NCBI GenBank assembly: GCA_964642615.1
Contig: CAZXSW010000004.1
Span: forward strand, 2,210-66,209
Length of the DNA stretch: 64,000 bases
Direction of reading: 5' to 3'
Source of the DNA: an uncultured Rikenellaceae bacterium
GTDB taxonomy: Bacteria; Bacteroidota; Bacteroidia; Bacteroidales; VadinHA17
Position 1 is the stretch's first letter; the number at the start of each line of letters is the position of its first letter. Shown here piece by piece: positions 884 to 54,138 of the stretch. The translations under genes and the position numbers were made by a program. The notes below the pieces were generated by a model that saw only the letters and a program-made list of their open reading frames with translations, was not told the DNA's origin and ran no database searches.

Positions 884-2836
884 ATGGTTTCCATAAAAGA
901 TATCTCAGTATCATTCGGAAGTTTTGATCTTTTAACAAACATATCGTTTCTGGTCAATGATCAGGACCGTATAGGTCTTGCTGGTAAAAACGGAGCAGGT
1001 AAATCGACTCTTCTACGTATCATATCGGGCGAGCTAAGTCCCTCTTCGGGACTGGTCGACATGTCGAAAGAGATAACCATTGGCTATCTCCCCCAGCAGT
1101 TAAAGGTAAGCGACACCACGACTGTTCTGAACGAGACCCTTTCTGCCTTTTCTGCCCTGCTTAACCTTAAGGAGTCGATTGAAAACTACCACCATGAGAT
1201 CTCCCGAAGGGATGACTATGAAAGCGAGTCGTACCTGAGGCTCTGCGACAGGCTTATTGAGGACGAAGAGCGCTTCAGGATAATGGGTGGCAACAACTAT
1301 ATGGCAGAGACTGAGCTGGCACTTACAGGACTTGGATTTGAAAGGAAGGATTTTGACCGGCCCACCAGAGAGTTGAGCGGAGGCTGGAGGATGAGAATCG
1401 AGCTTGCCAAGATCATCCTCAGAAAACCATCTCTCTTCCTTCTGGATGAACCTACCAATCATCTCGATATTGAATCAATACAGTGGCTCGAATCTTTTCT
1501 TTCGGGTTATAACGGTGCTGTTGTCCTTGTATCACACGACAAGGCATTTCTTGATAATGTAACAAACCGCACCCTGGAGATCTCTCTTGGCAGAATCTAC
1601 GATTACAGGGCATCATGGTCGGAGTATTTACGACTACGGACAGAGAGGCGCGAACAGCAGTTAGCCGCATACCGGAACCAGCAGAAGATGATTGATGATA
1701 CGGAGAAATTCATTGAGAGGTTTCGCTACAAAGCCACCAAGGCAGTCCAGGTACAGTCAAGGATCAAACACCTTGAAAAGACTGAAAGGATTGAGGTTGA
1801 CGAAGAAGATTTCAGTTCAATAAACCTGCGTTTTGCTCCGGCTCCCAGATCAGGGACTGTGGTTATTGAAGCCAGAGAACTGTCAAAGAGCTTTGGCGAG
1901 CACCAGGTACTTAATAAAATATCCTTTACTGTCACCCGGGGAGAGAAAGTGGCTTTTGTAGGCCGTAATGGGGAAGGCAAGACCACTTTTTCAAAAATCA
2001 TAACAGGAGAACTCGACCATACGGGATTCCTCAGAATGGGTCATAACGTAAAGACCGGCTATTTTGCCCAGAACCAGGATGAGTTGCTTGATGAATCGAA
2101 GAGTGTCTTTCAGACCATCGACGATATTGCCACTGGCGACATAAGGTCAAGGATAAGGGATATGCTGGGGGCCTTCCTGTTCAGGGGTGATGAGATTGAA
2201 AAGAAAGTAAAGGTACTCTCGGGAGGAGAGCGGTCAAGGCTGGCCCTTATAAGGCTTTTACTTGAGCCCTACAATCTTCTGGTGCTTGATGAGCCCACCA
2301 ATCACCTCGACATGAGGTCAAAGGATATCCTTAAACAGGCTCTGATCCGTTATGATGGCACATTAATTGTGGTCTCTCACGACAGGGATTTTCTCGACGG
2401 ACTTGTCGGTAAGGTTTATGAGTTCCGCAATAATACCATTAAAGAGCATATCGGTGGAATTTACGACTTCCTTAAGAAGAAAAAAATTGGGAACCTGAGA
2501 GATATCGAAATAAAGGAAAAAAACTCATCAGGGGAAGTCCGCACCGAAGAACTGACAGGCAGCAAAAAAAGATACCTTGAGAAAAAAGAATATGAAAAAA
2601 ATCTCAGGAAGATGAGAAAGACACTCGGGGAATCTGAGACAAGGATTGAAAAGCTGGAAGCTGAACTTGCAGAGGTCAGCCGTCTGCTCAATGATCCTTC
2701 GGCGACAGACGAATCTCCTGACAATATTTACAGACGGTATGAGGAAGTCAGGATAACCCTTGAGCTGGAGATGGATCGCTGGACCCTCTGTAGTCACGAA
2801 ATGGAGGAATACCTGAAATCAAATGACAATGAATAA
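884..2836 (+). CDS. ABC-F family ATP-binding protein
   Basis: Two ABC cassettes (GKNGAGKST/LSGGWRMR/LLDEPTNHLD; GRNGEGKTT/LSGGERSR), no TM segments, C-terminal coiled coil. Confidence 0.93.
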   Translation: MVSIKDISVSFGSFDLLTNISFLVNDQDRIGLAGKNGAGKSTLLRIISGELSPSSGLVDMSKEITIGYLPQQLKVSDTTTVLNETLSAFSALLNLKESIENYHHEISRRDDYESESYLRLCDRLIEDEERFRIMGGNNYMAETELALTGLGFERKDFDRPTRELSGGWRMRIELAKIILRKPSLFLLDEPTNHLDIESIQWLESFLSGYNGAVVLVSHDKAFLDNVTNRTLEISLGRIYDYRASWSEYLRLRTERREQQLAAYRNQQKMIDDTEKFIERFRYKATKAVQVQSRIKHLEKTERIEVDEEDFSSINLRFAPAPRSGTVVIEARELSKSFGEHQVLNKISFTVTRGEKVAFVGRNGEGKTTFSKIITGELDHTGFLRMGHNVKTGYFAQNQDELLDESKSVFQTIDDIATGDIRSRIRDMLGAFLFRGDEIEKKVKVLSGGERSRLALIRLLLEPYNLLVLDEPTNHLDMRSKDILKQALIRYDGTLIVVSHDRDFLDGLVGKVYEFRNNTIKEHIGGIYDFLKKKKIGNLRDIEIKEKNSSGEVRTEELTGSKKRYLEKKEYEKNLRKMRKTLGESETRIEKLEAELAEVSRLLNDPSATDESPDNIYRRYEEVRITLELEMDRWTLCSHEMEEYLKSNDNE

Positions 2837-3599
2837 GATAAGAGAACTGACAAAGGAATACAGGGTTAATGTGTATGATACCGGACCCAACGGCCAACTT
2901 GCCATATACACAATGTTCGACTATCTTCAGGATATTGCCTCGGACCATGCTGAAATGCTGGGTTACGGACGTGATGATCTTATGCAGCAGAATAACTTCT
3001 GGGTACTCTCAAGAATCTATGCTGAGATTCACAGCCTTCCGGTATGGAACGATCTCATAAAAATAAGGACATGGCCAAGGGGTACTGACAAGCTTTTTGC
3101 AGTCAGGGATTATGAGATCATGGAGCCGGGAGGCCAGAAGATTGCTGCTGCCACATCATCGTGGCTTATTATTGACAGAACAACAAAGAAGATAAGACGG
3201 CCTGATAACACTCTCAGTTATATGAATACTGATTTCCTGAAGGACAGATCTCTTTACAGGAATTCAGGGAAAATTGAGCCGGTAGCGCCGGAAGGAATGA
3301 TTATGTCGAGGTTCAATGTCAGGGTCAGTGATCTCGATCTCAATCTTCATACAAATAATGCAAGATATCTGAAATGGGCCATCGACACCTACAATCTTGG
3401 ATTCATACTTAATAACGATCCTTTTTCCGTTGAAATAAACTATCTTGCTGAATCTCATTTCAACGATGAGATAAACATTAAGGTATCTGTAGAAAACAAC
3501 GGAGCGATGTTTTTCAATCATTCCATTTTCAGTTCGCAAGGGAACAATGAGCTCTGCCGCATCAAAATAGGGTGGAAAGAAAATTCTACTGAAAAATAA
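2829..3599 (+). CDS. Acyl-ACP thioesterase (FatA/FatB-like double hotdog)
   Basis: Motifs YRVNVYDT, WVLSRIY, IRTWP, DLDLNLHTNNARY; start 2823 or 2829, overlapping the ABC-F stop. Confidence 0.88.
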   Translation: MNKIRELTKEYRVNVYDTGPNGQLAIYTMFDYLQDIASDHAEMLGYGRDDLMQQNNFWVLSRIYAEIHSLPVWNDLIKIRTWPRGTDKLFAVRDYEIMEPGGQKIAAATSSWLIIDRTTKKIRRPDNTLSYMNTDFLKDRSLYRNSGKIEPVAPEGMIMSRFNVRVSDLDLNLHTNNARYLKWAIDTYNLGFILNNDPFSVEINYLAESHFNDEINIKVSVENNGAMFFNHSIFSSQGNNELCRIKIGWKENSTEK

Positions 3600-6932: not shown

Positions 6933-8219
6933 TCAGTTTTCTGCTTTTTTCTCTGACAGAGTCAGAAGATCATCTCCTGATGGTTGCTGGAACACCCTTA
7001 ATCCAAAGCCAGGCATAACGGCATATAGGTGTTCGAATATCTCAGAAAGAATATGTTCATAGTGAATCCAGGAGTTCCTTGTACAAAATGCATATATCTC
7101 GAGGGGAAGTCCGTCACTGGCCGGAGGCCGGTGACGGACAATTATTGTCTGGTCGCTGTCTATCATAGGGTGTTTCCTGAGATAGGTCTCGGCATAGATT
7201 CTGAAGAGGCCCAGGTTTGTTATCCTGGCCGAACCCGATATGCTATGCCTGTCTTCCCTCCCGGGTTTCCTGCTACCGTATTCCTTATCAACTGAGTTAA
7301 AGAAATCCCTTATCTCCGGAATCTCAAGATATGTCTTCCTGAGATCCTCACCGGCAACGCTGATACTTCTGATGTCGATCATAATGGCTCTTTTGATCTG
7401 CCTGACACCCGACTCCTCCATACCTATCCAGTTCTGGAACGATTCAGTGACGAGCGACCATGTAGGAATAGTAATGATCGACTTGTCAAAGTTCTGAACC
7501 TTTACAGTGGTAAGGGTCATATCTATGACGTTTCCGTCAACCTGTCGTCCGGGGATGGAGATCCAGTCTCCAACCTTCATCATCTTATTGACCGACAGCT
7601 GAATACTTGCCGCAAGCCCAAGAATGGGATCCTTAAAGATGAGCATAAGCACGGCAGCCATAGCTCCGAGACCGGCAACAACCGCACTTACTTCCTTTCT
7701 GAAAACGGCAGCAATTATAATGAGTGCAGTTACTGCAACCACAAATATCTTAACCACCTGTACATACCCTTTGATGGGCCTGTGCTGCGAAACAGGCAGG
7801 GTGAGATAGATCTTGTGCCATGCTTCAATAAAGGTGTTTATAACCACCATGCCTATGAGAATCATGTATATATAGGTCAGCTTCCTGACGGCCAGCAGCC
7901 ACACCGGATACTCCTGAAGAGCCCATCCTGCCATAAGCCATATGACAAGTGCGGGAGCATAATGTGATAATCTTAGGAACACTTTCTGTTCAAGGAGTAT
8001 ATCGTCCCAGACAGATGCAGTTCTTTTGACAATCCTGGAAACAACTTTCCCTATGATGAATCTGGTAATTATATTCGAAAGCCAGCTTAGCACGATAACC
8101 ACTGAAACAAGGATCACCGTACTTAAAAAGACAGACAGGCTACTGCCCAATCCGGTACCAATAAGCAACTCTTTCAACCATACTGCCGGATCGTTTGAGA
8201 AAAGCATAGGATCGATCAT
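6933..8219 (-). CDS. MscS-family mechanosensitive channel (YbdG-like)
   Basis: Multiple TM helices; GLGAMAAVLMLIFKDPILG, VGDWI, VKVQNFDKSIITIPT, SFQNWIGM. Confidence 0.9.
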   Translation of the reverse strand: MIDPMLFSNDPAVWLKELLIGTGLGSSLSVFLSTVILVSVVIVLSWLSNIITRFIIGKVVSRIVKRTASVWDDILLEQKVFLRLSHYAPALVIWLMAGWALQEYPVWLLAVRKLTYIYMILIGMVVINTFIEAWHKIYLTLPVSQHRPIKGYVQVVKIFVVAVTALIIIAAVFRKEVSAVVAGLGAMAAVLMLIFKDPILGLAASIQLSVNKMMKVGDWISIPGRQVDGNVIDMTLTTVKVQNFDKSIITIPTWSLVTESFQNWIGMEESGVRQIKRAIMIDIRSISVAGEDLRKTYLEIPEIRDFFNSVDKEYGSRKPGREDRHSISGSARITNLGLFRIYAETYLRKHPMIDSDQTIIVRHRPPASDGLPLEIYAFCTRNSWIHYEHILSEIFEHLYAVMPGFGLRVFQQPSGDDLLTLSEKKAEN

Positions 8220-18651: not shown

Positions 18652-19110
18652 ATGAAAGGAAGCACATCAGATATAGTAATCAAAAACCGGAAGGCCTCGC
18701 ACGACTATGAATTTCTTGAGAAGTACGTTGCGGGAATAAAGCTGTCGGGGACAGAGATAAAATCAATACGGATGGGGAAAGCGGCACTTTCCGACTCGTA
18801 TTGCTTTTTCAGTGGAGGCGAGCTGTTCCTAAAAGGCATGCACATTTCAGAGTACTGGTGGGGAAATCTCAACAACCACGATCCGATACGCGACAGGAAG
18901 CTTCTTCTTAAATCAAGGGAACTCCGCAAGATAGAAAGGAAGGTAAAGGAAAGCGGCCTGACCATCATAGTGATAAAAGTATTTATCAATGAAAGGGGCT
19001 TTGCCAAAGCTGAGATAGCGATTGCAAAGGGTAAGAAGGAATATGATAAGCGCGAGACCCTTAAACGGAAGGATGCCTCGCGCGAAATGGACCGGATAAG
19101 GAAAAAATGA
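18652..19110 (+). CDS. smpB: SsrA-binding protein SmpB
   Basis: NRKASHDY, GIKLSGTEIKSIR, RDRKLLL, KGKKEYDKRE. Confidence 0.97.
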   Translation: MKGSTSDIVIKNRKASHDYEFLEKYVAGIKLSGTEIKSIRMGKAALSDSYCFFSGGELFLKGMHISEYWWGNLNNHDPIRDRKLLLKSRELRKIERKVKESGLTIIVIKVFINERGFAKAEIAIAKGKKEYDKRETLKRKDASREMDRIRKK

Positions 19111-30603: not shown

Positions 30604-30723
30604 TTTCAGCCTGTTATCTAAGGTATTATTAAATTGAATACTTTTGAAAGGTAAACAATTCCTGCAGATCTGCCAGAGCTGACAGGCCTGGTTTTTTTTG
30701 TGAAATATGAAAAATAGCGTTCT

Positions 30724-30823
30724 ATGAAACCAACATGATTGAACCAAATCGCAAACACGTATGATTCTTATTCATTATCAAGCATTTGTGGCTCCATCCA
30801 ACCTTTAAATAAACTATATACGG
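30724..30823 (+). repeat. Dispersed imperfect-palindrome element, copy A, abutting the sensor kinase ATG
   Basis: Manual alignment: 87/100 matches plus a 2-nt gap to the reverse complement of 41463-41564. Confidence 0.9.
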
Positions 30824-32239
30824 ATGAAAAAAAGAAATACCATCCTGATTTCCGGAGTGATTTCGATAGTTATCCTGATCTCTGTTCAGATCATAATAAT
30901 AAGCGGCGTATGGCAACAGAAGGATGAAATGTTCAATCTACGGTACAGGTTGTATTCTCAGGACGCCATGGAGAGCCTTGAAAGAAGATGGGGTACTGAC
31001 GGGTTCGACACTGCCCGTTACCTCATAAACAGTTACTCTGAATTTGCAGTTGGCGAATTTTCAGTTATCACTGATGATTCTTCAGCCGCCGAGATGAAAC
31101 GCGACGTATATGATTTTGTATTGAAAGTACTCGAGCAGGAACAGGATCTGTCTGATTTCCTTTCTTTTTATTTTGCCCGCCAGGGAGTTGAAAAAGACTT
31201 CAACCATAAGATAGTAATCAACTATCTTGAGCTTCTCGGACCGGACATCAGAATACCTATTTATATAAGCGAGGATTATCTGAGACACAGGCCGCCGGTA
31301 CCGGGCCAGGAACCGGGTTCAGTTGAGCAAAGGGAAATAACCCGGCCCTCTTCCGAGATTCTCATTAAGGGGTACAGATCTGAAGATAACCTTTACAGGC
31401 TCGACTTTGATTACTATATTGATTTCAGTGACAAGCAGAGGGTTATACTGCGTGAGACATCAGCCTCACTTATTATGAGTATCCTGAGTATAATGGTTGT
31501 GGTTGCCTTGTTTATGACAACCTACAGAAACCTGATGGAAGAAAAAAGGCTGTCGGATCTGAAAACCGACTTCATAAACAACATGACCCATGAGCTCAAG
31601 ACTCCTCTTTCGACTATTACTGTTGCCGGAAAGACACTCGAGATACCCCAGATCAGGGCCAACGACTCCAAAATTCTTGAGACGGCCAAAATGATAGGGA
31701 AACAGAGCGTTCACCTTAACCAGCTTATAAATATGATCCTCGAAATAAGCATGTGGGAAAGAACACAGTTCCAGGTTGACAGGAAGAATGTAAATATGGA
31801 TGAACTGCTTACCGACATCATCGAGAGCTTCAGGACCGGCTGCAACAACTGCGCCGAAGTGTCGGCAAATATTAACCTCCGGGATATTTATGCAGATGTT
31901 GATGTCGTTTACTTCACCACCCTGATCAACAACCTGTTGTCAAATGCAGTAAAATATTCGGACAGGGATCCGGTGATAAAGGTCGATGCCCTGGTTGAAA
32001 ACGACATCATAATGATTAAGGTGGCCGACAATGGCATAGGCATCGGCAGAAATGACCAGAAACACATTTTTGATAAATTTTACCGCGCCTCTACAGGAAA
32101 CATACATAAATTCAAAGGCCTTGGACTGGGACTGTACTACGTAAAAAAAATCGCAAATGCACACGGAGGAGATGTTACCGTTAGCAGTAAACCAGGAAAA
32201 GGTAGTATATTTACAATAAGTATACCTATCAAACAATGA
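30824..32239 (+). CDS. Two-component sensor histidine kinase
   Basis: Two TM helices; FINNMTHELKTPLS (H box), NNLLSNAVKY, DNGIGI, FDKFYR, GLGLGL. Confidence 0.96.
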   Translation: MKKRNTILISGVISIVILISVQIIIISGVWQQKDEMFNLRYRLYSQDAMESLERRWGTDGFDTARYLINSYSEFAVGEFSVITDDSSAAEMKRDVYDFVLKVLEQEQDLSDFLSFYFARQGVEKDFNHKIVINYLELLGPDIRIPIYISEDYLRHRPPVPGQEPGSVEQREITRPSSEILIKGYRSEDNLYRLDFDYYIDFSDKQRVILRETSASLIMSILSIMVVVALFMTTYRNLMEEKRLSDLKTDFINNMTHELKTPLSTITVAGKTLEIPQIRANDSKILETAKMIGKQSVHLNQLINMILEISMWERTQFQVDRKNVNMDELLTDIIESFRTGCNNCAEVSANINLRDIYADVDVVYFTTLINNLLSNAVKYSDRDPVIKVDALVENDIIMIKVADNGIGIGRNDQKHIFDKFYRASTGNIHKFKGLGLGLYYVKKIANAHGGDVTVSSKPGKGSIFTISIPIKQ

Positions 32240-40436: not shown

Positions 40437-41462
40437 CTATCGCGGGTTGTATTTTGCTTTCTCAACAATCAGCTGAACATCTGTCATATTCAACAGATCT
40501 TCCAGGGATGTGCCCGGATTCCGCTCCATAAACGATTCAGCGATCCTGTATCCCAGCCATACTGCTGCCCTTCCTGGAGATTCATTTGTGAAAAATGATG
40601 TAAAGGGAGCCTCTCCTGTAAGCTTTCTTACAGTGAACTGGTCTGTTTTGAAAAGCAGATCATTTTCAACAAGGTACTGCCACATCTGACCTTCATTGTT
40701 CCTGCAGAATTTAATCTGATCGGAGGTAAACCCGAAAAGGATCTCTTCAGATAGTCCGGGCAGCATGGATCTTAGATAATACTTGAGTTTCCCTTCATGA
40801 ATAAGAGCTGAGAGAACGGTCTCCGACGGATAACCCATGTCGGGATAATACCATTCTGAGGCTCCCCAGCCATAAACGGCATCAGGAACAACATATTCAG
40901 GAGTCATCCTGGCCGAAAGGTAACTGTAGATCATTAACCTGGGATAATAGCTGCAGTCGGCACCCAGATAACGGTCGAGACTGATACCCAGGACTGAATC
41001 GCCGGCAATAATGCTGCTGTTGAACCCTGTGATGCAGGTATAAACAGAGGGGACCACCCTGCCGGGGAAATAATGATGGTAACGGCTGAAAGCTTCTTCA
41101 AGGCCATCTTCAATCGCAGTAACATCTGGATAGAGCTTCATAACCTCGGCATATACTTCATTATTCAGCCTGTCGGTAACAAAGACGGTAAGATAGTCGC
41201 CAAAATCAGGATCATTTATATCACCTGTATTTATAACATTGCTGAACAACTGCAGAAAGGCAGGGTATTTTTCCTTTAACCCGGCGACCTGCTCACTCAC
41301 CAGTCCCGGGTCATTAATAAAGAGATCCTCCTCAAGCCTCATGATCTCAAGTTCAGCATGCTCGCCTGAGATATTGATCCTGAAACGGTCTCTTTTACAC
41401 GAAAGTATCAAAACACCCGCCACTGCCAGGGTAAGGAGAAGACTGAATGTCTTTATTTTCAT
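40437..41462 (-). CDS. gldB: Gliding motility lipoprotein GldB-like
   Basis: Lipobox ILSC from ATG 41462; VSLDRYLG, LIHEGKLKY, NEGQMWQYLVEN, ESPGRAAVWLGYRI. Confidence 0.8.
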   Translation of the reverse strand: MKIKTFSLLLTLAVAGVLILSCKRDRFRINISGEHAELEIMRLEEDLFINDPGLVSEQVAGLKEKYPAFLQLFSNVINTGDINDPDFGDYLTVFVTDRLNNEVYAEVMKLYPDVTAIEDGLEEAFSRYHHYFPGRVVPSVYTCITGFNSSIIAGDSVLGISLDRYLGADCSYYPRLMIYSYLSARMTPEYVVPDAVYGWGASEWYYPDMGYPSETVLSALIHEGKLKYYLRSMLPGLSEEILFGFTSDQIKFCRNNEGQMWQYLVENDLLFKTDQFTVRKLTGEAPFTSFFTNESPGRAAVWLGYRIAESFMERNPGTSLEDLLNMTDVQLIVEKAKYNPR

Positions 41463-41564
41463 CCGTAAATAATTTATTTTTAAAGGTTGGATGGAACCAC
41501 ACATGATTGATAATGAACAAGATTCATATTATTTTGTGATTTGGTTCAATCATGTGGGTTTCAT
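41463..41564 (-). repeat. Dispersed element, copy B, abutting the gldB ATG
   Basis: Matches copy A; core 41491-41564 has arms ATGGAACCACACATGATTGA / TCAATCATGTGGGTTTCAT. Confidence 0.9.
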
Positions 41565-41613
41565 AAGTAAATGTTTTAATGTTTATGGTCTGATAGCCTC
41601 CTGCATTAAGCCC

Positions 41614-41678
41614 GGGAATCCACATATTTGAAAAATCATTTTAAAAGTGTTTATGTTATCATAAAATGTGGGGTTCAT
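41614..41678 (-). repeat. Dispersed element, degenerate copy D (tandem to B)
   Basis: Minus strand ATGAACCCCACAT...TCAAATATGTGGATTCC resembles both arms of B. Confidence 0.55.
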
Positions 41679-41849
41679 ATTTCAGTTTTTCTGAGTCAAA
41701 AATAGGTACTTTTTTATTCACCTCCGGAAATAAACGAATTCTTTACTTCCATTATTATTTACTAATTTTACAACTGTGTATTCGGATGCACCAGAAAAAG
41801 CCGGATTTCTTAAAGCGAATCTGATGCTATTAACAAAAAACTGACTGTC

Positions 41850-49686: not shown

Positions 49687-49738
49687 TTTTAACGATAAGA
49701 AAAAAAAATTTACTTTCGCTCCTCCTTAAATTTTGCTT

Positions 49739-52450
49739 ATGCGACATTGCCTTTTAATACTTCTATTTGCCCTGTTGCCTGCAGAACTTATTATCAGTCA
49801 ATCTGTTAAAGGAAAGATCACCGACACAGGAGGGAAAGCTGTCGCGTATGCAACGGTTTATGTTCAGGAACTCAGGCAGGGAACCACTTCAAATGCCGGC
49901 GGAGAATACGAACTTAACATACCATCCGGCAAATACCTGATCTTCTTTCAGAGCCTGGGATATGAACCCGCCATTATTGATCTTACTGTTGGAGAGGAGA
50001 CCATTACCCGCGATGTGGTTCTGAATGAACAGTTTTATGAGATACCGGAGGTACTCATATCACCTTCGGGGGAAGATCCGGCCTACTCAATAATGAGAAG
50101 AGCCATAGGTCTTGCTCCCTACCATCTTAACCAGGTGAGCCACTACAGGGCAGATGTTTATCTCAAGGGCAACCTCATAGTAAATAAAATCCCGAAAATA
50201 GTCACCATGTCGGTAAAGATGGACCGTAATGAACGGAGTGCAACCGTTTCAGCAGGAGGCCGGGAAGGGGGTAATGAGGGATCCCTCAAAGAAGGCGACC
50301 TGTATTTCATGGAGTCATTCAACGAGGTTGAATTCAATGCTCCCGACAGATATGTTCAGAAAGTCATTTCAGTAAACAGCACCTTTCCTGAAAGCAACGG
50401 TTATATATCCCCGATGGATTTCATCCAGGCAAGCTTCTACCAGCCCGTACTTGCCGATATGGCTATCTCCCCGCTTTCGCCCCAGGCCTTTTCGCATTAC
50501 AACTTCAGTTATCTGGGGGCCTCTCCGCAGGGAGATTATACAATAAACAAGATCGGGGTCAAACCAAAGAGAAAAAGCCAGCAACTTTTCGAAGGTACAA
50601 TATACATTGTTGATGAGCTTTGGTGCATCCACAGTCTCGACCTTACAAACAACAACATCATAGGCAGAATAAGAATCAGGGAACTGGCTGTCCCTGTCCG
50701 TGATGAGATATGGATGCCCGTGAGCTACAACTTTGATGTCAATGTAAGTATCCTTGGATTTAAATCAGATATCGGCTATACAAGTTCAATAAAATACCTT
50801 GATATCACTCCTGATACAAGGCTAAAAAGGCCTGAAGAATTTGCATTATTACCTGGGGTTGGGAAACTTCCTTCAGATACCCTGCCAGTGTCAGCGAACG
50901 GGGAGAAGATTGGGAAGATCCTGAATAAGGAGGAGTTGTCGAACAGGGATATGGTTACACTTGCCCGACTGATGAAGAAGGAAAGTGAAACCGGAATCGC
51001 CGATACTGTCAGTCAGAGCCCTGCCGAATCGAGAAATACCACCTTAATATACGATGAAGATGCCGCTAAAAAAGACCAGGAATACTGGGCTTCAGTCAGA
51101 CCGGTCCCATTAACTCCCGAAGAACTTACAAGTCTGGCTTCTGCTGACAGCCTGAAAAAACTACGCAGGCAGACTGTTTCTTACGATGCCGACTCCCTTG
51201 ATGGCCCTGGAAACCGAAAATCAAGCCGTTTTCTGAGACAGGCAGGCGACATAATCTTCGGACACACATGGGCTGACACTTCAGGTACAAGTTTCAGATC
51301 GGGCGGACTGGTGAACCCCTCCAAAATAGGCTTCAACACAGTCGACGGCTTTGTTTATGGAACCGATTTCAGCATATCCAAAAAGTTTGGTAACGGAAGT
51401 AACCTGTTTATCATACCTGAACTAAGGTATGCCTTCAGCCGTCAGAAACTTATGTGGAAGCTTAATGCAAACATCACTACAGGAGGGAAAAGGCCTGGTC
51501 AGTTTTATGTCCGCACAGGTGTTGTCAGCAAGGATTTCAACCTGGCAGGTGGAATTGATCCACTGGTCAATACACTTACAACCCTGTTTCTTCGAAGAAA
51601 CTACATGAAACTTTATGAAAGCCGTTATTTGAATCTCGGTTACAGGGCGGCCATCTCCGACAGGGTAACGCTTGTAATTAATGCAGGTTACGAGAATCGC
51701 AGGATGCTGCAGAACAATACTGACTACTCCTTCTTTAGCCGCCATCGTGAATATACGGACAACATACCCGGAAACTCACTCCTTACCCCTGATAGTCACG
51801 AAAGATACCTGCCTGAAAATCAGAAACATTTCAGTTTTGAAGCAACCGCCGAAATAGTTCCCGGCCAACCTGACAGGTTACCCCTGAGCCGAAGGCCGGC
51901 TGTTCGTTCAGCCTGGCCTGATATCTCGCTTACCTGGAAACACGGGATGAACCAGGAACAAGTTAACTCAGACAGTTACCGACACTTCGACATGATTAAG
52001 CTTGAGGTCTCTGACAGGTATGACGCCGGTGCCTTCAGTGAATTCAGATGGAGATTCCGAACCGGAACTTTCATAAACAGGGAAGCACTCTCCTTTGTCG
52101 ACTTCTTCCATTTCAATGCCCAGCCTTTCTGGTTCCTTCCCGGCGATTATGAAGATGCCGTAATGCTTCCGGGTTATTATGCCCTCAGCACTTCCGATCT
52201 CTTCGCAGAGCTTCATGCTAAATATACAACACCTTACCTGCTTGTTAAGCTATTGCCTGTAGTTAGCAACACCCTGGTAAGGGAAAACCTTTCCTTACTT
52301 TATCTCGGATCGCAATTCCACGGTAACTATTTTGAGTTAGGGTACAGCCTCAGCGAGATTTTCCTTTTTGCTGAAGCCGGGGTCTACCTGGGCTTTGATG
52401 ATTTCAGGTACAAAAGTACAGGGTTTAAGCTTACCTTACGCTTCAACTGA
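49739..52450 (+). CDS. DUF5686 / carboxypeptidase-regulatory-like domain outer-membrane protein
   Basis: Signal peptide; SVKGKITD..YATVYV..GTTSNAGGEY..SLGYE (CarboxypepD_reg-like); DPAYSIMRRAI; barrel-like C-terminus. Confidence 0.78.
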   Translation: MRHCLLILLFALLPAELIISQSVKGKITDTGGKAVAYATVYVQELRQGTTSNAGGEYELNIPSGKYLIFFQSLGYEPAIIDLTVGEETITRDVVLNEQFYEIPEVLISPSGEDPAYSIMRRAIGLAPYHLNQVSHYRADVYLKGNLIVNKIPKIVTMSVKMDRNERSATVSAGGREGGNEGSLKEGDLYFMESFNEVEFNAPDRYVQKVISVNSTFPESNGYISPMDFIQASFYQPVLADMAISPLSPQAFSHYNFSYLGASPQGDYTINKIGVKPKRKSQQLFEGTIYIVDELWCIHSLDLTNNNIIGRIRIRELAVPVRDEIWMPVSYNFDVNVSILGFKSDIGYTSSIKYLDITPDTRLKRPEEFALLPGVGKLPSDTLPVSANGEKIGKILNKEELSNRDMVTLARLMKKESETGIADTVSQSPAESRNTTLIYDEDAAKKDQEYWASVRPVPLTPEELTSLASADSLKKLRRQTVSYDADSLDGPGNRKSSRFLRQAGDIIFGHTWADTSGTSFRSGGLVNPSKIGFNTVDGFVYGTDFSISKKFGNGSNLFIIPELRYAFSRQKLMWKLNANITTGGKRPGQFYVRTGVVSKDFNLAGGIDPLVNTLTTLFLRRNYMKLYESRYLNLGYRAAISDRVTLVINAGYENRRMLQNNTDYSFFSRHREYTDNIPGNSLLTPDSHERYLPENQKHFSFEATAEIVPGQPDRLPLSRRPAVRSAWPDISLTWKHGMNQEQVNSDSYRHFDMIKLEVSDRYDAGAFSEFRWRFRTGTFINREALSFVDFFHFNAQPFWFLPGDYEDAVMLPGYYALSTSDLFAELHAKYTTPYLLVKLLPVVSNTLVRENLSLLYLGSQFHGNYFELGYSLSEIFLFAEAGVYLGFDDFRYKSTGFKLTLRFN

Positions 52451-52460
52451 TTTCTTTAAT

Positions 52461-52544
52461 ATGAAACACGCATGTATTGCATAAACACGCATGAAATAAT
52501 TTCCTTACATGTGTTTCCATCAGGCTTTTAAATATAATTATTTA
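52461..52544 (+). repeat. Dispersed element, divergent copy C, between convergent genes
   Basis: ATGAAACACGCATG...CATGTGTTTCCATC plus tail CTTTTAAATATAATTATTTA resembling the copy B tail. Confidence 0.65.
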
Positions 52545-52620: not shown

Positions 52621-54138
52621 CTAGGCAAACGGAGGCTCATCATGGAAGCCATTCTCATCTTCAAATGCTCCGCCAGGCAACCTTACAGGATCATGATTCA
52701 TTTTTGACCCCAGGGTGATACTCTGCGTTCCGCCTATATCAGGAGTTACTATATCAAAGTCGTCAAGATCAACAAACTGGGCCTTCTCCTCCCTGAATCT
52801 TAATCTTACATCATCAACCGGACCGTTTCTGTTTTTTGCCAGGATTATTTCGGCTATCCCCTTTGTTGAGACATCATCTTCAAAAGTCGGTATTCCGAAT
52901 TTTTCAGGACGATGGATAAAAACGACCATATCAGCATCCTGTTCAATTGCTCCTGATTCACGAAGGTCGGAAAGCAGGGGACGCTTGGAACCTCCCCTCA
53001 TCTCAACCGACCTGTTGAGCTGTGAAAGAGCAAGAATAGGAACATTAAGCTCCTTGGCAATACTCTTTAGCGATCGTGATATAGTACTGACCTCCTGTTC
53101 ACGGCTTCCGGCATTTTCCGGTCCCGACATAAGCTGAAGATAATCAACTATAACTAAATCAAGCTTATGCTGAGCCATAAGTCTTCTGCATTTAGCCCTG
53201 AGTTCGAAGATAGATATAGCAGGAGTGTCGTCGATAAAAACAGGAGCCTGGACAAGCTTCTTTATTCTGGTATCAAGCTGTTTCCATTCTTCTTCATTGA
53301 GCCGGCCGTTTTTTATCTTATCACCCGAAATGTCGGTCTCAGCAATTATGAGCCTGTTTACCAGCTGAATTGACGACATCTCAAGAGAGAAGATGGCCAC
53401 CTTCTTGCCATGATCTATAGCCATGTTTCTGGCCATGGAAAGGGCGAATGCCGTCTTTCCCATCGAAGGTCTGGCGGCTATTATTATGAGCTCCGATTTC
53501 TGCCATCCTGAGGTAAGCCTGTCAAGTTTAGTAAAACCCGAGGGTATCCCAACGAGTGCATCCTCACGTTTCCCTGCCTCTTCAATCTCCCTGATAGCCT
53601 CCTTAATTACCATGTTTATGGGCGAGACCTCCCTTTTTATGTTCCCCTCAGCTATCTGAAACAAGGCATTCTCTGAGAAATCGAGTAATTCGGTTACATC
53701 ATACGAATCATCAAATGACCTCGACTGTATCTCTGTTGCCACTCTTATAAGCTCCCTCTGGATGTATTTCTGAGCAACGATTCTGGCATGAAAGTCGACA
53801 TTGGCAGCAGATACAACCTTGGTTGTAAGCTGTGTCAGATAAACCGGTCCTCCAACACTCTCAAGTTCATTACGCGAACGCAGGTCCTCAGTAACAGTAT
53901 ACAGGTCAACCGGGTATTCCCTTGCTGAAAGATCCGAAACACTTCTGAATATCTTCTGGTGAGCCTCTTTGTAAAAGCTCTCGGGCTTAAGAATGTCAAG
54001 GATAGTGATAACCGCCTCTTTCTCAAGCATTATAGCTCCCAAAACAGCTTCTTCCATGTCGATTGCCTGAGGAGGGATTCTTCCAAGATCAGGAAGTAAA
54101 GAAGCAACCTGCCTGACACCATTCTTTTGTCTGACCAT
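52621..54138 (-). CDS. dnaB: Replicative DNA helicase
   Basis: PPQAIDMEEAVLGA, ARPSMGKTAF, IVDYLQLM, LSQLNR, SDLRESGAIEQDAD, AKNRNGP. Confidence 0.98.
   Translation of the reverse strand: MVRQKNGVRQVASLLPDLGRIPPQAIDMEEAVLGAIMLEKEAVITILDILKPESFYKEAHQKIFRSVSDLSAREYPVDLYTVTEDLRSRNELESVGGPVYLTQLTTKVVSAANVDFHARIVAQKYIQRELIRVATEIQSRSFDDSYDVTELLDFSENALFQIAEGNIKREVSPINMVIKEAIREIEEAGKREDALVGIPSGFTKLDRLTSGWQKSELIIIAARPSMGKTAFALSMARNMAIDHGKKVAIFSLEMSSIQLVNRLIIAETDISGDKIKNGRLNEEEWKQLDTRIKKLVQAPVFIDDTPAISIFELRAKCRRLMAQHKLDLVIVDYLQLMSGPENAGSREQEVSTISRSLKSIAKELNVPILALSQLNRSVEMRGGSKRPLLSDLRESGAIEQDADMVVFIHRPEKFGIPTFEDDVSTKGIAEIILAKNRNGPVDDVRLRFREEKAQFVDLDDFDIVTPDIGGTQSITLGSKMNHDPVRLPGGAFEDENGFHDEPPFA

Follow-up and report, generated by a model that had tools for sequence, protein, structure and literature searches.

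The window analysed here is a stretch of 64,000 nucleotides (nt) from an uncultured Rikenellaceae bacterium (contig CAZXSW010000004.1 of assembly GCA_964642615.1). It carries a sequence of about 100 nt twice, before two unrelated genes encoding a sensor kinase and a GldB-like protein, each time ending at the start codon. This ‘leader’ is very probably (about 85%) a non-autonomous mobile element, of ~95 nt plus one ATGAAA, that targets start codons and restores them. It joins the known class of small non-autonomous repeats, and what sets it apart is that it homes to Met-Lys starts and regenerates them. Comparison of empty with filled sites firmly establishes that insertion is orientation-specific and bound to one hexamer, and that the start codon is regenerated.

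The initial annotation had offered two explanations for the leader. One, a portable unit with its own translation start, akin to MITEs (miniature inverted-repeat transposable elements) or repetitive extragenic palindromic (REP) sequences, is supported by dispersed copies, arrays, empty sites, a range of ages and occurrence in distant species. The other, a shared cis-regulatory module, finds no support: the downstream genes are unrelated, and gldB lacks the unit in 20 genomes of the genus. The sequence had been recognised as neither a riboswitch nor the end of an insertion sequence (IS), which holds for Rfam 15 and the literature searched, and it can still be called undescribed as far as public sources go, where no paper on such an element was found.

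Empty and filled sites

The pair consists of two units, copy A and copy B. Alignment of 30724-30823 (+) with the reverse complement of 41463-41564 gives 87 matches across 100/102 nt with a single 2-nt gap, just as the initial annotation had it. The similarity sets in abruptly at (T)ATGAAACC and stops a few bases past the 3′ ATGAAA; there is none outside the copies, upstream or downstream, and the flanks are indeed unrelated. The 3′ ATG of each copy opens a long open reading frame (ORF), as had been claimed: a sensor kinase of 471 amino acids (aa) at 30824..32239 (+) after copy A, and a GldB-like protein at 40437..41462 (−) after copy B, 341 aa counted from the copy's 3′ ATG. The 3′ ATGAAA of copy A (30824-30829) supplies the start codon and Lys codon of the kinase ORF, and the GldB-like N-terminus, read from the ATG of copy B, aligns with its orthologues from residue 1. 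The window holds four units in all. The initial annotation saw the pair and missed an older unit in tandem before copy B, a decayed unit at 52461-52544 and the large dispersed family to which they belong. The features at the two filled sites are as follows.

30724..30829, + strand: copy A, subfamily A; 5′ ATGAAA at 30724-30729, 3′ ATGAAA at 30824-30829
41457..41564, − strand: copy B, subfamily A, intact; 5′ ATGAAA at 41564-41559, 3′ ATGAAA at 41462-41457, the gldB start
41559..41678, − strand: older diverged unit in tandem upstream of copy B (nhmmer E = 8e-9; flank comparison)
41679..41720, − strand: native gldB upstream region with a Bacteroidota-type −7 box (TAnnTTTG), here TATTTTTG within AAAAGTnnCTATTTTTGAC

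Among the genomes sampled, the one closest to the window's own genome (G000) is designated G043, with a GldB that shows 85% identity. Upstream of its gldB, collinearity with the window extends as far as the last base ahead of the start codon, after which G043 continues with ATGAAG-ATA-AGA. After this shared flank, the window has ATGAAC, the first unit, ATGAAA, the second unit and ATGAAA-ATA-AAG. The 5′ ATGAAC of the tandem unit (41678-41673) lies at the position of the gldB start codon in relatives, and its 3′ ATGAAA (41564-41559) doubles as the 5′ ATGAAA of copy B. The site is empty in G043 and in 19 further genomes of the genus (n=20). At orthologous loci in most genomes of the genus, the −7 box lies ~20-35 nt before the gldB ATG and presumably works as its promoter; a conserved ‘TAAAAATAACAAATAATAA’-like block is found further upstream. 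In the window, box and coding sequence are now parted by two units, ~220 nt. Because the conserved box sits upstream of both units, these would be transcribed as part of the gldB 5′ untranslated region (UTR).

An empty allele was found for the kinase as well. In a related strain, known from metagenome contigs of two other samples, the gene has no unit and the sequence reads ...ATTATTAATAA-ATGAAAAAAGAAA. In the window itself, ATGAAAAATAG occurs 18 nt upstream of copy A, with its ATG at 30707 (within 30700-30723, +), between the copy and a T-run that comes after a GC-rich inverted repeat. One possibility is that this was the original start, another that it is an older remnant.

For the reverse comparison, 20 unit-bearing loci of G043 were fetched and compared with G000, in which nine of them are empty. 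Seven of the nine read flank-ATGAAA-gene when empty and flank-ATGAAA-(about 95 nt)-ATGAAA-gene when filled; the remaining two empty sites have ATGAAG once and ATGACA once. Orthologous loci that are filled in both genomes differ in their arrays, with one unit against two or three, and the younger extra unit may stand between the old one and the gene or beyond the old one. Either ATGAAA hexamer of a resident unit can therefore serve as a target. Across eleven empty/filled comparisons, the unit directly follows ATGAAA, itself ends in ATGAAA and has a single orientation.

Copies, targets and structure of the family

The assembly searched, G000, comprises 2.71 Mb in 214 contigs, is 98.6% complete and was built from short reads. 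BLAST with copy A returns 11 near-full-length copies, and an iterated nhmmer profile finds 86 distinct copies over many contigs. The pair is thus part of a dispersed family, which excludes a one-off local duplication, and its similarity is far beyond chance, since the element recurs 86 times. In fifty-three copies the terminal ATG is the start of an ORF of 100 aa or more; in ten the frame from the 3′ ATG reaches the end of the contig, eight abut the next unit of a head-to-tail array, eight stand before short ORFs and seven lack the right end. The same placement on start codons is seen at 119 loci of other metagenome-assembled genomes (MAGs). Units stand before roughly 3% of the genes of G000, and these genes are unrelated to each other, encoding aspartokinase, 2-isopropylmalate synthase, GcvT, threonine dehydrogenase, many lipoproteins, a sensor kinase and SmpB. 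For eleven of the 86 copies, a contig end is no more than 150 nt away (on C167, C135, C125, C110, C90, C23 and C7), and the repeat is one cause of fragmentation in the short-read assembly.

At the right junction, the hexamer reads ATGAAA in 177 of 189 cases, ATGAAT in 8 and ATGAAC in 4. ATGAAG is never found there (0 cases); it is the second commonest gene start in G000, used by 128 genes versus 349 for ATGAAA. The 5′ and 3′ hexamers of a unit differ in seven copies (ATGAAA versus ATGAAT). The 12 bases before the left junction are merely A-rich, as in ordinary Bacteroidota start contexts, which fits the 5′ ATGAAA being the original start codon.

A unit begins with ATGAAAC and the left arm of a helix, P1, followed by a loop with a conserved ACACAAACAC, the right arm ending in GTT(N)CAT and three variable bases. 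The right half continues with an A/T-rich tail (ACCATTAAAAT.AAAATTATATAC), three bases and ATGAAA. The unit has no terminal inverted repeats (TIRs): its ends are direct repeats (ATGAAA...ATGAAA), and the inverted repeat is internal and followed by an asymmetric tail of ~35 nt. In ~40% of copies, one or two extra GC-rich hairpins (CCCGC-N4-GCGGG) come after the right arm, and the older tandem unit before gldB has a GC-rich insert at this place. Long variants of ~143 nt carry two such hairpins between P1 and the tail; those in G000 are listed here.

C17:31674-31815
C167:2422-2564
C13:41072-41214
C28:5636-5778
C79:5499-5641

At C44:19667 and the orthologous locus of G043, the units are identical except that the GC-hairpin module is present in one and absent from the other, which suggests exchange between copies.

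P1 and a second helix, P2, were specified by hand and then tested for covariation; RNAalifold predicted no pairs on a MAFFT alignment. P1 has 15 bp, of which 10 change on both sides, and none of 500 shuffles reaches the observed values. Its inner triplet varies across families of the order (CCA/TGG, ACC/GGT, ATC/GAT). In P2, the CAT-NNN after P1 pairs with NNN-ATG at the right end, and this helix covaries too (CAG/CTG, CAT/ATG, CCG/CGG, CTG/CAG). The TT(N)CAT segment is able to pair either with the 5′ ATGAAA at the base of P1 or with the 3′ ATGAAA in P2. Minimum-energy folds contain P1 and P2 under RNA and DNA parameters alike, and the consensus RNA fold has z = -4.05. The asymmetry between G-U and A-C pairs, a test of RNA versus DNA hairpins, was uninformative at 34 versus 26. 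Copy B has both helices, with P1 arms at 41560-41546 and 41510-41495 enclosing a small inner hairpin (ATGAAT/ATTCAT) and P2 arms at 41493-41489 and 41464-41460; its RNA fold reaches -24 kcal/mol (z = -3.85) and its DNA fold z = -2.57. In copy A, P1 has decayed and P2 (CCATC/GGATG) is retained, with a fold z of -0.03.

Two further features of the window concern the decay of units.

52461..52544, + strand: decayed unit (nhmmer model positions 1-92), between convergent genes and off a start codon
18642..18657, + strand: solo element tail (AAATATACTG + ATGAAA) before smpB, whose ATG is at 18652

The decayed unit lies 10 nt past the stop of a 905-aa ORF (49733..52450) and before the convergent gene at 52621..54138. 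It retains the 5′ ATGAAAC and the hairpin, and its right end with ATGAAA is gone; non-start sites can evidently be hit. At smpB, AAATATACTG matches the last 10 bases of the element tail and there is no hairpin. The same site in the sister genome G043 holds a full unit of another subfamily, and the solo tail looks like a deletion remnant, one of three solo tails in the genome (the others at C4:71273 and C48:17625). Solo tails and copies off start codons are as expected of decaying DNA insertions.

The copies span a wide range of ages. By identity to the closest paralogue in G000, ten are at ≥98%, seven at 90-98%, 19 at 80-90% and 29 below 80%. G043 has ~90 copies and another relative, G004, ~58; insertions of the same young subfamily as in G000 occur among those specific to G043. 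By BLAST, copies are present in 19 of 24 genomes of the genus. A covariance model (R1) built from the family and used for an order-wide scan matches 43 of 201 sampled genomes of the order and 37 of 167 genera, and in a phylum sample of 300 genomes there were two genomes with one weak match each and otherwise none. The named records that contain exact matches are all MAGs of uncultured, Bacteroidales-type bacteria, which come from digesters, biofilms, wastewater and soil. A subfamily-B consensus made from G000 copies is matched at 95-96% identity by copies in G004, G015 and G019, while GldB is only 58-62% identical between G000 and these three genomes; vertical neutral descent therefore cannot explain the spread. 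One unit was seen at 7500-7600 of a Mu-like phage contig, L222 (IMGVR_UViG_3300025613_000874, IMG/VR), before a 113-aa gene and downstream of genes for a repressor, a 653-aa MuA-like transposase and a MuB-like ATPase. A Mu-like phage is a plausible route for the repeat between hosts. No match to the element was found in collections of cultured phages and plasmids.

Mechanism and competing explanations

The unit integrates at ATGAAA in one orientation, so that the old start codon ends up at the foot of P1 and an identical new start abuts the coding sequence, preceded by the A/U-rich and mostly unstructured tail. Translation initiation in Bacteroidota takes place without a Shine-Dalgarno sequence, and for this reason the tail should suffice for initiation. 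Repeated insertion at either ATGAAA of a resident unit produces head-to-tail arrays. Surviving copies are found mostly on Met-Lys starts, probably because this is the only kind of ATGAAA site where insertion spares the gene.

The helices suggest how the target might be chosen. At the 3′ foot of P1, the segment TT(N)CAT-NNN complements both the left ATGAAA and the right NNN-ATGAAA, with NNN pairs that covary between subfamilies, and may act as an internal guide that marks both cleavage/joining sites and the target. Such logic would resemble that of the HUH single-strand (‘peel and paste’) transposons of the IS200/IS605 type. A guided single-strand element is the leading mechanistic idea and a tentative one, held at well below even odds. 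Orientation tied to the lagging-strand template is the classic signature of single-strand insertion; of three genomes, one shows it, the single-contig G193, in which 16 of 19 copies are co-oriented with the replication fork versus ~50% of genes (one-sided binomial p ~0.002). The known Y1 TnpA is probably not the mobilising enzyme. The fullest version of the idea, in which the element addresses itself to start codons by means of a single-stranded DNA (ssDNA) enzyme other than Y1 TnpA and gives ~3% of genes a shared P2/P1 initiation module, is possible and rather doubtful.

Several observations weigh against the mobile-element reading or the way in which it is framed here. No excision or insertion event was witnessed, and mobility is read from the comparison of loci. 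No longer element with these ends, as an autonomous partner would be, was found even in a genome of 5 contigs. Clustering of the genes that follow 93 copies in other genomes gave scattered orthologues only and no recurrent gene beside the copies. Matches to Y1_Tnp number 0 in the assemblies of G000, G043 and G021, all with recent bursts; Y1_Tnp is equally frequent in element-poor and element-rich genomes, and the TnpA genes inspected are not flanked by the element. The IS110-type DEDD transposase (PF01548) likewise has 0 matches in G000, G043, G021, G015 and G019 and is present in the element-poor G007 and G012. As MAGs often lose IS copies, the absence of a transposase is weak evidence. Bias relative to the fork is lacking on G004:C4 (14 of 22 copies co-oriented versus 64% of genes) and in G000 (22 of 45 versus 50%). 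Finally, G000 contains ~3,476 ATGAAA sites, ~350 at gene starts, ~574 at other non-coding positions and the rest intragenic; ~84% of arrays lie on gene starts, versus ~40% expected from a hexamer target minus intragenic insertions. This leaves two options: a target that comprises more than the hexamer, or selection and deletion in favour of copies at starts.

Candidates for the missing partner were considered. Two TnpA genes have a copy no more than 2 kb away; other genes intervene, or the adjacent repeat is a different one. Copies in G017, G019 and G021 that match only model positions 1-62 were rejected as autonomous left ends, being ordinary units with a GC-hairpin insert. At ~2280-3140 of locus L211 (G019:C54:40000-44000), several copies of a different GC-rich repeat, which in translation yields a spurious motif ...LPRGETRATGRPALKAGRNHP, adjoin a 150-aa Y1/RAYT-like gene. 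They probably represent a REP-like family of their own that belongs with this transposase.

The main alternative mechanism is conservative site-specific recombination directed by a core, in which a tyrosine or serine recombinase, or an enzyme of the IS110/IS492 type, would act at a 6-bp ATGAAA common to the joined ends and the target and leave a core at either end. The invariant hexamer flanks each unit as a direct repeat, which is the pattern left by IS492-type elements and by the attL/attR cores of integrases. Such a scheme also agrees with orientation-specific insertion, and with copies in G000 and G004 whose orientation is mixed with respect to replication. Against it stand the distribution of the DEDD transposase, which five element-rich genomes lack and element-poor ones have, the mechanical cost of a double-stranded circle of ~100 bp, and a core without the surrounding inverted repeats to which a recombinase would bind. 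The covarying P1 and P2 would not be needed either. On balance, recombination of this kind is unlikely.

A classical MITE, mobilised in trans by a DDE transposase with a 6-bp target duplication and an extreme preference for ATGAAA, would likewise be small and numerous, with a hairpin body and an apparent 6-bp direct repeat. The ends speak against it, however: there are no TIRs, the left end being ATGAAACCCACATG and the reverse complement of the right end TTTCATCAGTATAT, and the inverted repeat lies inside the unit ahead of the ~35-nt asymmetric tail. The junction hexamer is fixed (ATGAAA in 177/189), not a target duplication of variable sequence, and the mismatched hexamers of seven copies are not the product of a fresh duplication. 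Nor was a full-length IS with these ends found in the 5-contig genome. This origin appears improbable.

It may be asked instead whether the unit is primarily a cis-regulatory RNA leader, such as a thermosensor, a module binding a protein or small RNA, or a ribosome standby site, whose spread is secondary. Units always lie on the sense strand, at gldB within the presumed 5′ UTR; the covarying P2 sequesters the real AUG, and the loop ACACAAACAC is conserved across families of the order. In predicted structural ensembles, the region from -18 to +9 is more open at the new, 3′ start than at the old, 5′ start in 43 of 52 copies (Wilcoxon p = 2e-6). Against this, the downstream genes have no functional coherence and form no regulon, presence of the unit varies between sister genomes and even strains, copies decay (copy A is without P1) and some lie between convergent genes. 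The pairing asymmetry does not favour an RNA over a DNA hairpin. Rfam gave no match at gathering score for the whole window; at E up to 10 for the loci of four copies, only chance matches appeared (best E 0.31), far below gathering scores. A primary role as an RNA leader is thus quite improbable. Very improbable indeed is a small gene, in which the 5′ ATG opens an upstream ORF (MKPTCIADT...) encoding a micropeptide or serving translational coupling: the consensus frame of the young subfamily is open for 31 codons and its TGA overlaps the real ATG (TGATG), but the frame survives in only 17 of the 56 copies of this genome and in 50 of 128 from other genomes (30-39%), stops after four codons in subfamily A, including both reported copies, and keeps no conserved relation between the two ATGs.

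A mobile element can still affect its host. An insertion would push the native promoter 100-300 nt upstream, and the mRNA would gain one or more strong hairpins. As judged from the predicted ensembles, the unit looks built to keep the gene translatable, although the AUG triplet itself tends to lie in the weak P2 helix. P2 over the real AUG could dampen, condition or modulate initiation, and in the mRNA it may compete with P1 over the old AUG, possibly making initiation tunable. An outward promoter borne by the element (TAnnTTTG plus an upstream TTG) was considered and rejected: the best candidate in the consensus, TAATTTTC, is without the final G, and subfamily A has none.

Relation to known small repeats

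Most descriptions of small bacterial repeats present them as passengers outside genes, with loose targets. This element aims at the first six coding bases of a gene and is rendered harmless by a spare start codon and a leader that is free of a Shine-Dalgarno sequence and in this way suits Bacteroidota. In practice, it will mislead gene callers on start sites and lead them to invent ‘micro-ORFs’, and it may be mistaken for a riboswitch or the signal of a regulon. The dispersed copies also offer a natural experiment on how translation responds to leader structure in a phylum that does without Shine-Dalgarno pairing. Were the internal guide real, the element itself would spell out its target.

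Among known systems, the palindrome-associated transposable elements (PATEs), gene-less derivatives of IS200/IS605 moved as ssDNA by a Y1 HUH TnpA, share many features. They too measure ~100 nt, lack TIRs and have hairpins near their ends; they insert in one orientation by a short fixed sequence, which with a similar right end gives an apparent direct repeat, and part of their interior complements the cleavage or target sequence (the ‘guide’ principle). The differences are considerable. The PATE target is 4-5 nt, whereas a hexamer is used here. Here the left junction falls within the hairpin foot and not ~20 nt away, and one guide-like segment would serve both ends. The likeness in hairpins is partial: PATEs have them near both ends, and here P1 is at the left, the right end has only the weak, long-loop P2 and the GC hairpin is optional. 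No TnpA is linked to the element, and one genome out of three showed a lagging-strand bias. PATEs are not known to land on start codons and restore them.

REP sequences and REPINs are likewise short, abundant, clustered, hairpin-forming and non-autonomous, with stems that covary between subfamilies. They are, however, palindromes of 20-40 nt, mostly downstream of genes, and each family is tied to a single-copy, REP-flanked REP-associated tyrosine transposase (RAYT). The element is ~100 nt long and asymmetric, and lies at the 5′ ends of genes with a fixed junction hexamer. G000 was without a Y1 gene; in relatives, those Y1/RAYT-like genes that were inspected adjoin a different GC-rich repeat.

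The Correia elements of Neisseria, the enterobacterial repetitive intergenic consensus sequences or intergenic repeat units (ERIC/IRU) of enterobacteria and the Rickettsia palindromic elements (RPEs) are also small repeats co-transcribed with their neighbours. Correia and ERIC hairpins alter the structure, stability or translation of the mRNA, and RPEs are tolerated inside genes. In contrast to the present element, Correia and ERIC have TIRs and loose targets (with a TA duplication for Correia), and none of these families is aimed at an initiation codon or regenerates it.

A parallel for the outcome at the target is provided by the islands and phages that integrate into the 3′ ends of tRNA genes, where the displaced part of the gene is replaced identically by the element, following the same ‘do no harm’ principle. 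Those integrative elements are of kilobase scale, encode their own integrase and occupy one or a few sites per genome. The element described here is a 100-nt passenger with hundreds of potential sites, and what it replaces is a start codon together with its leader.

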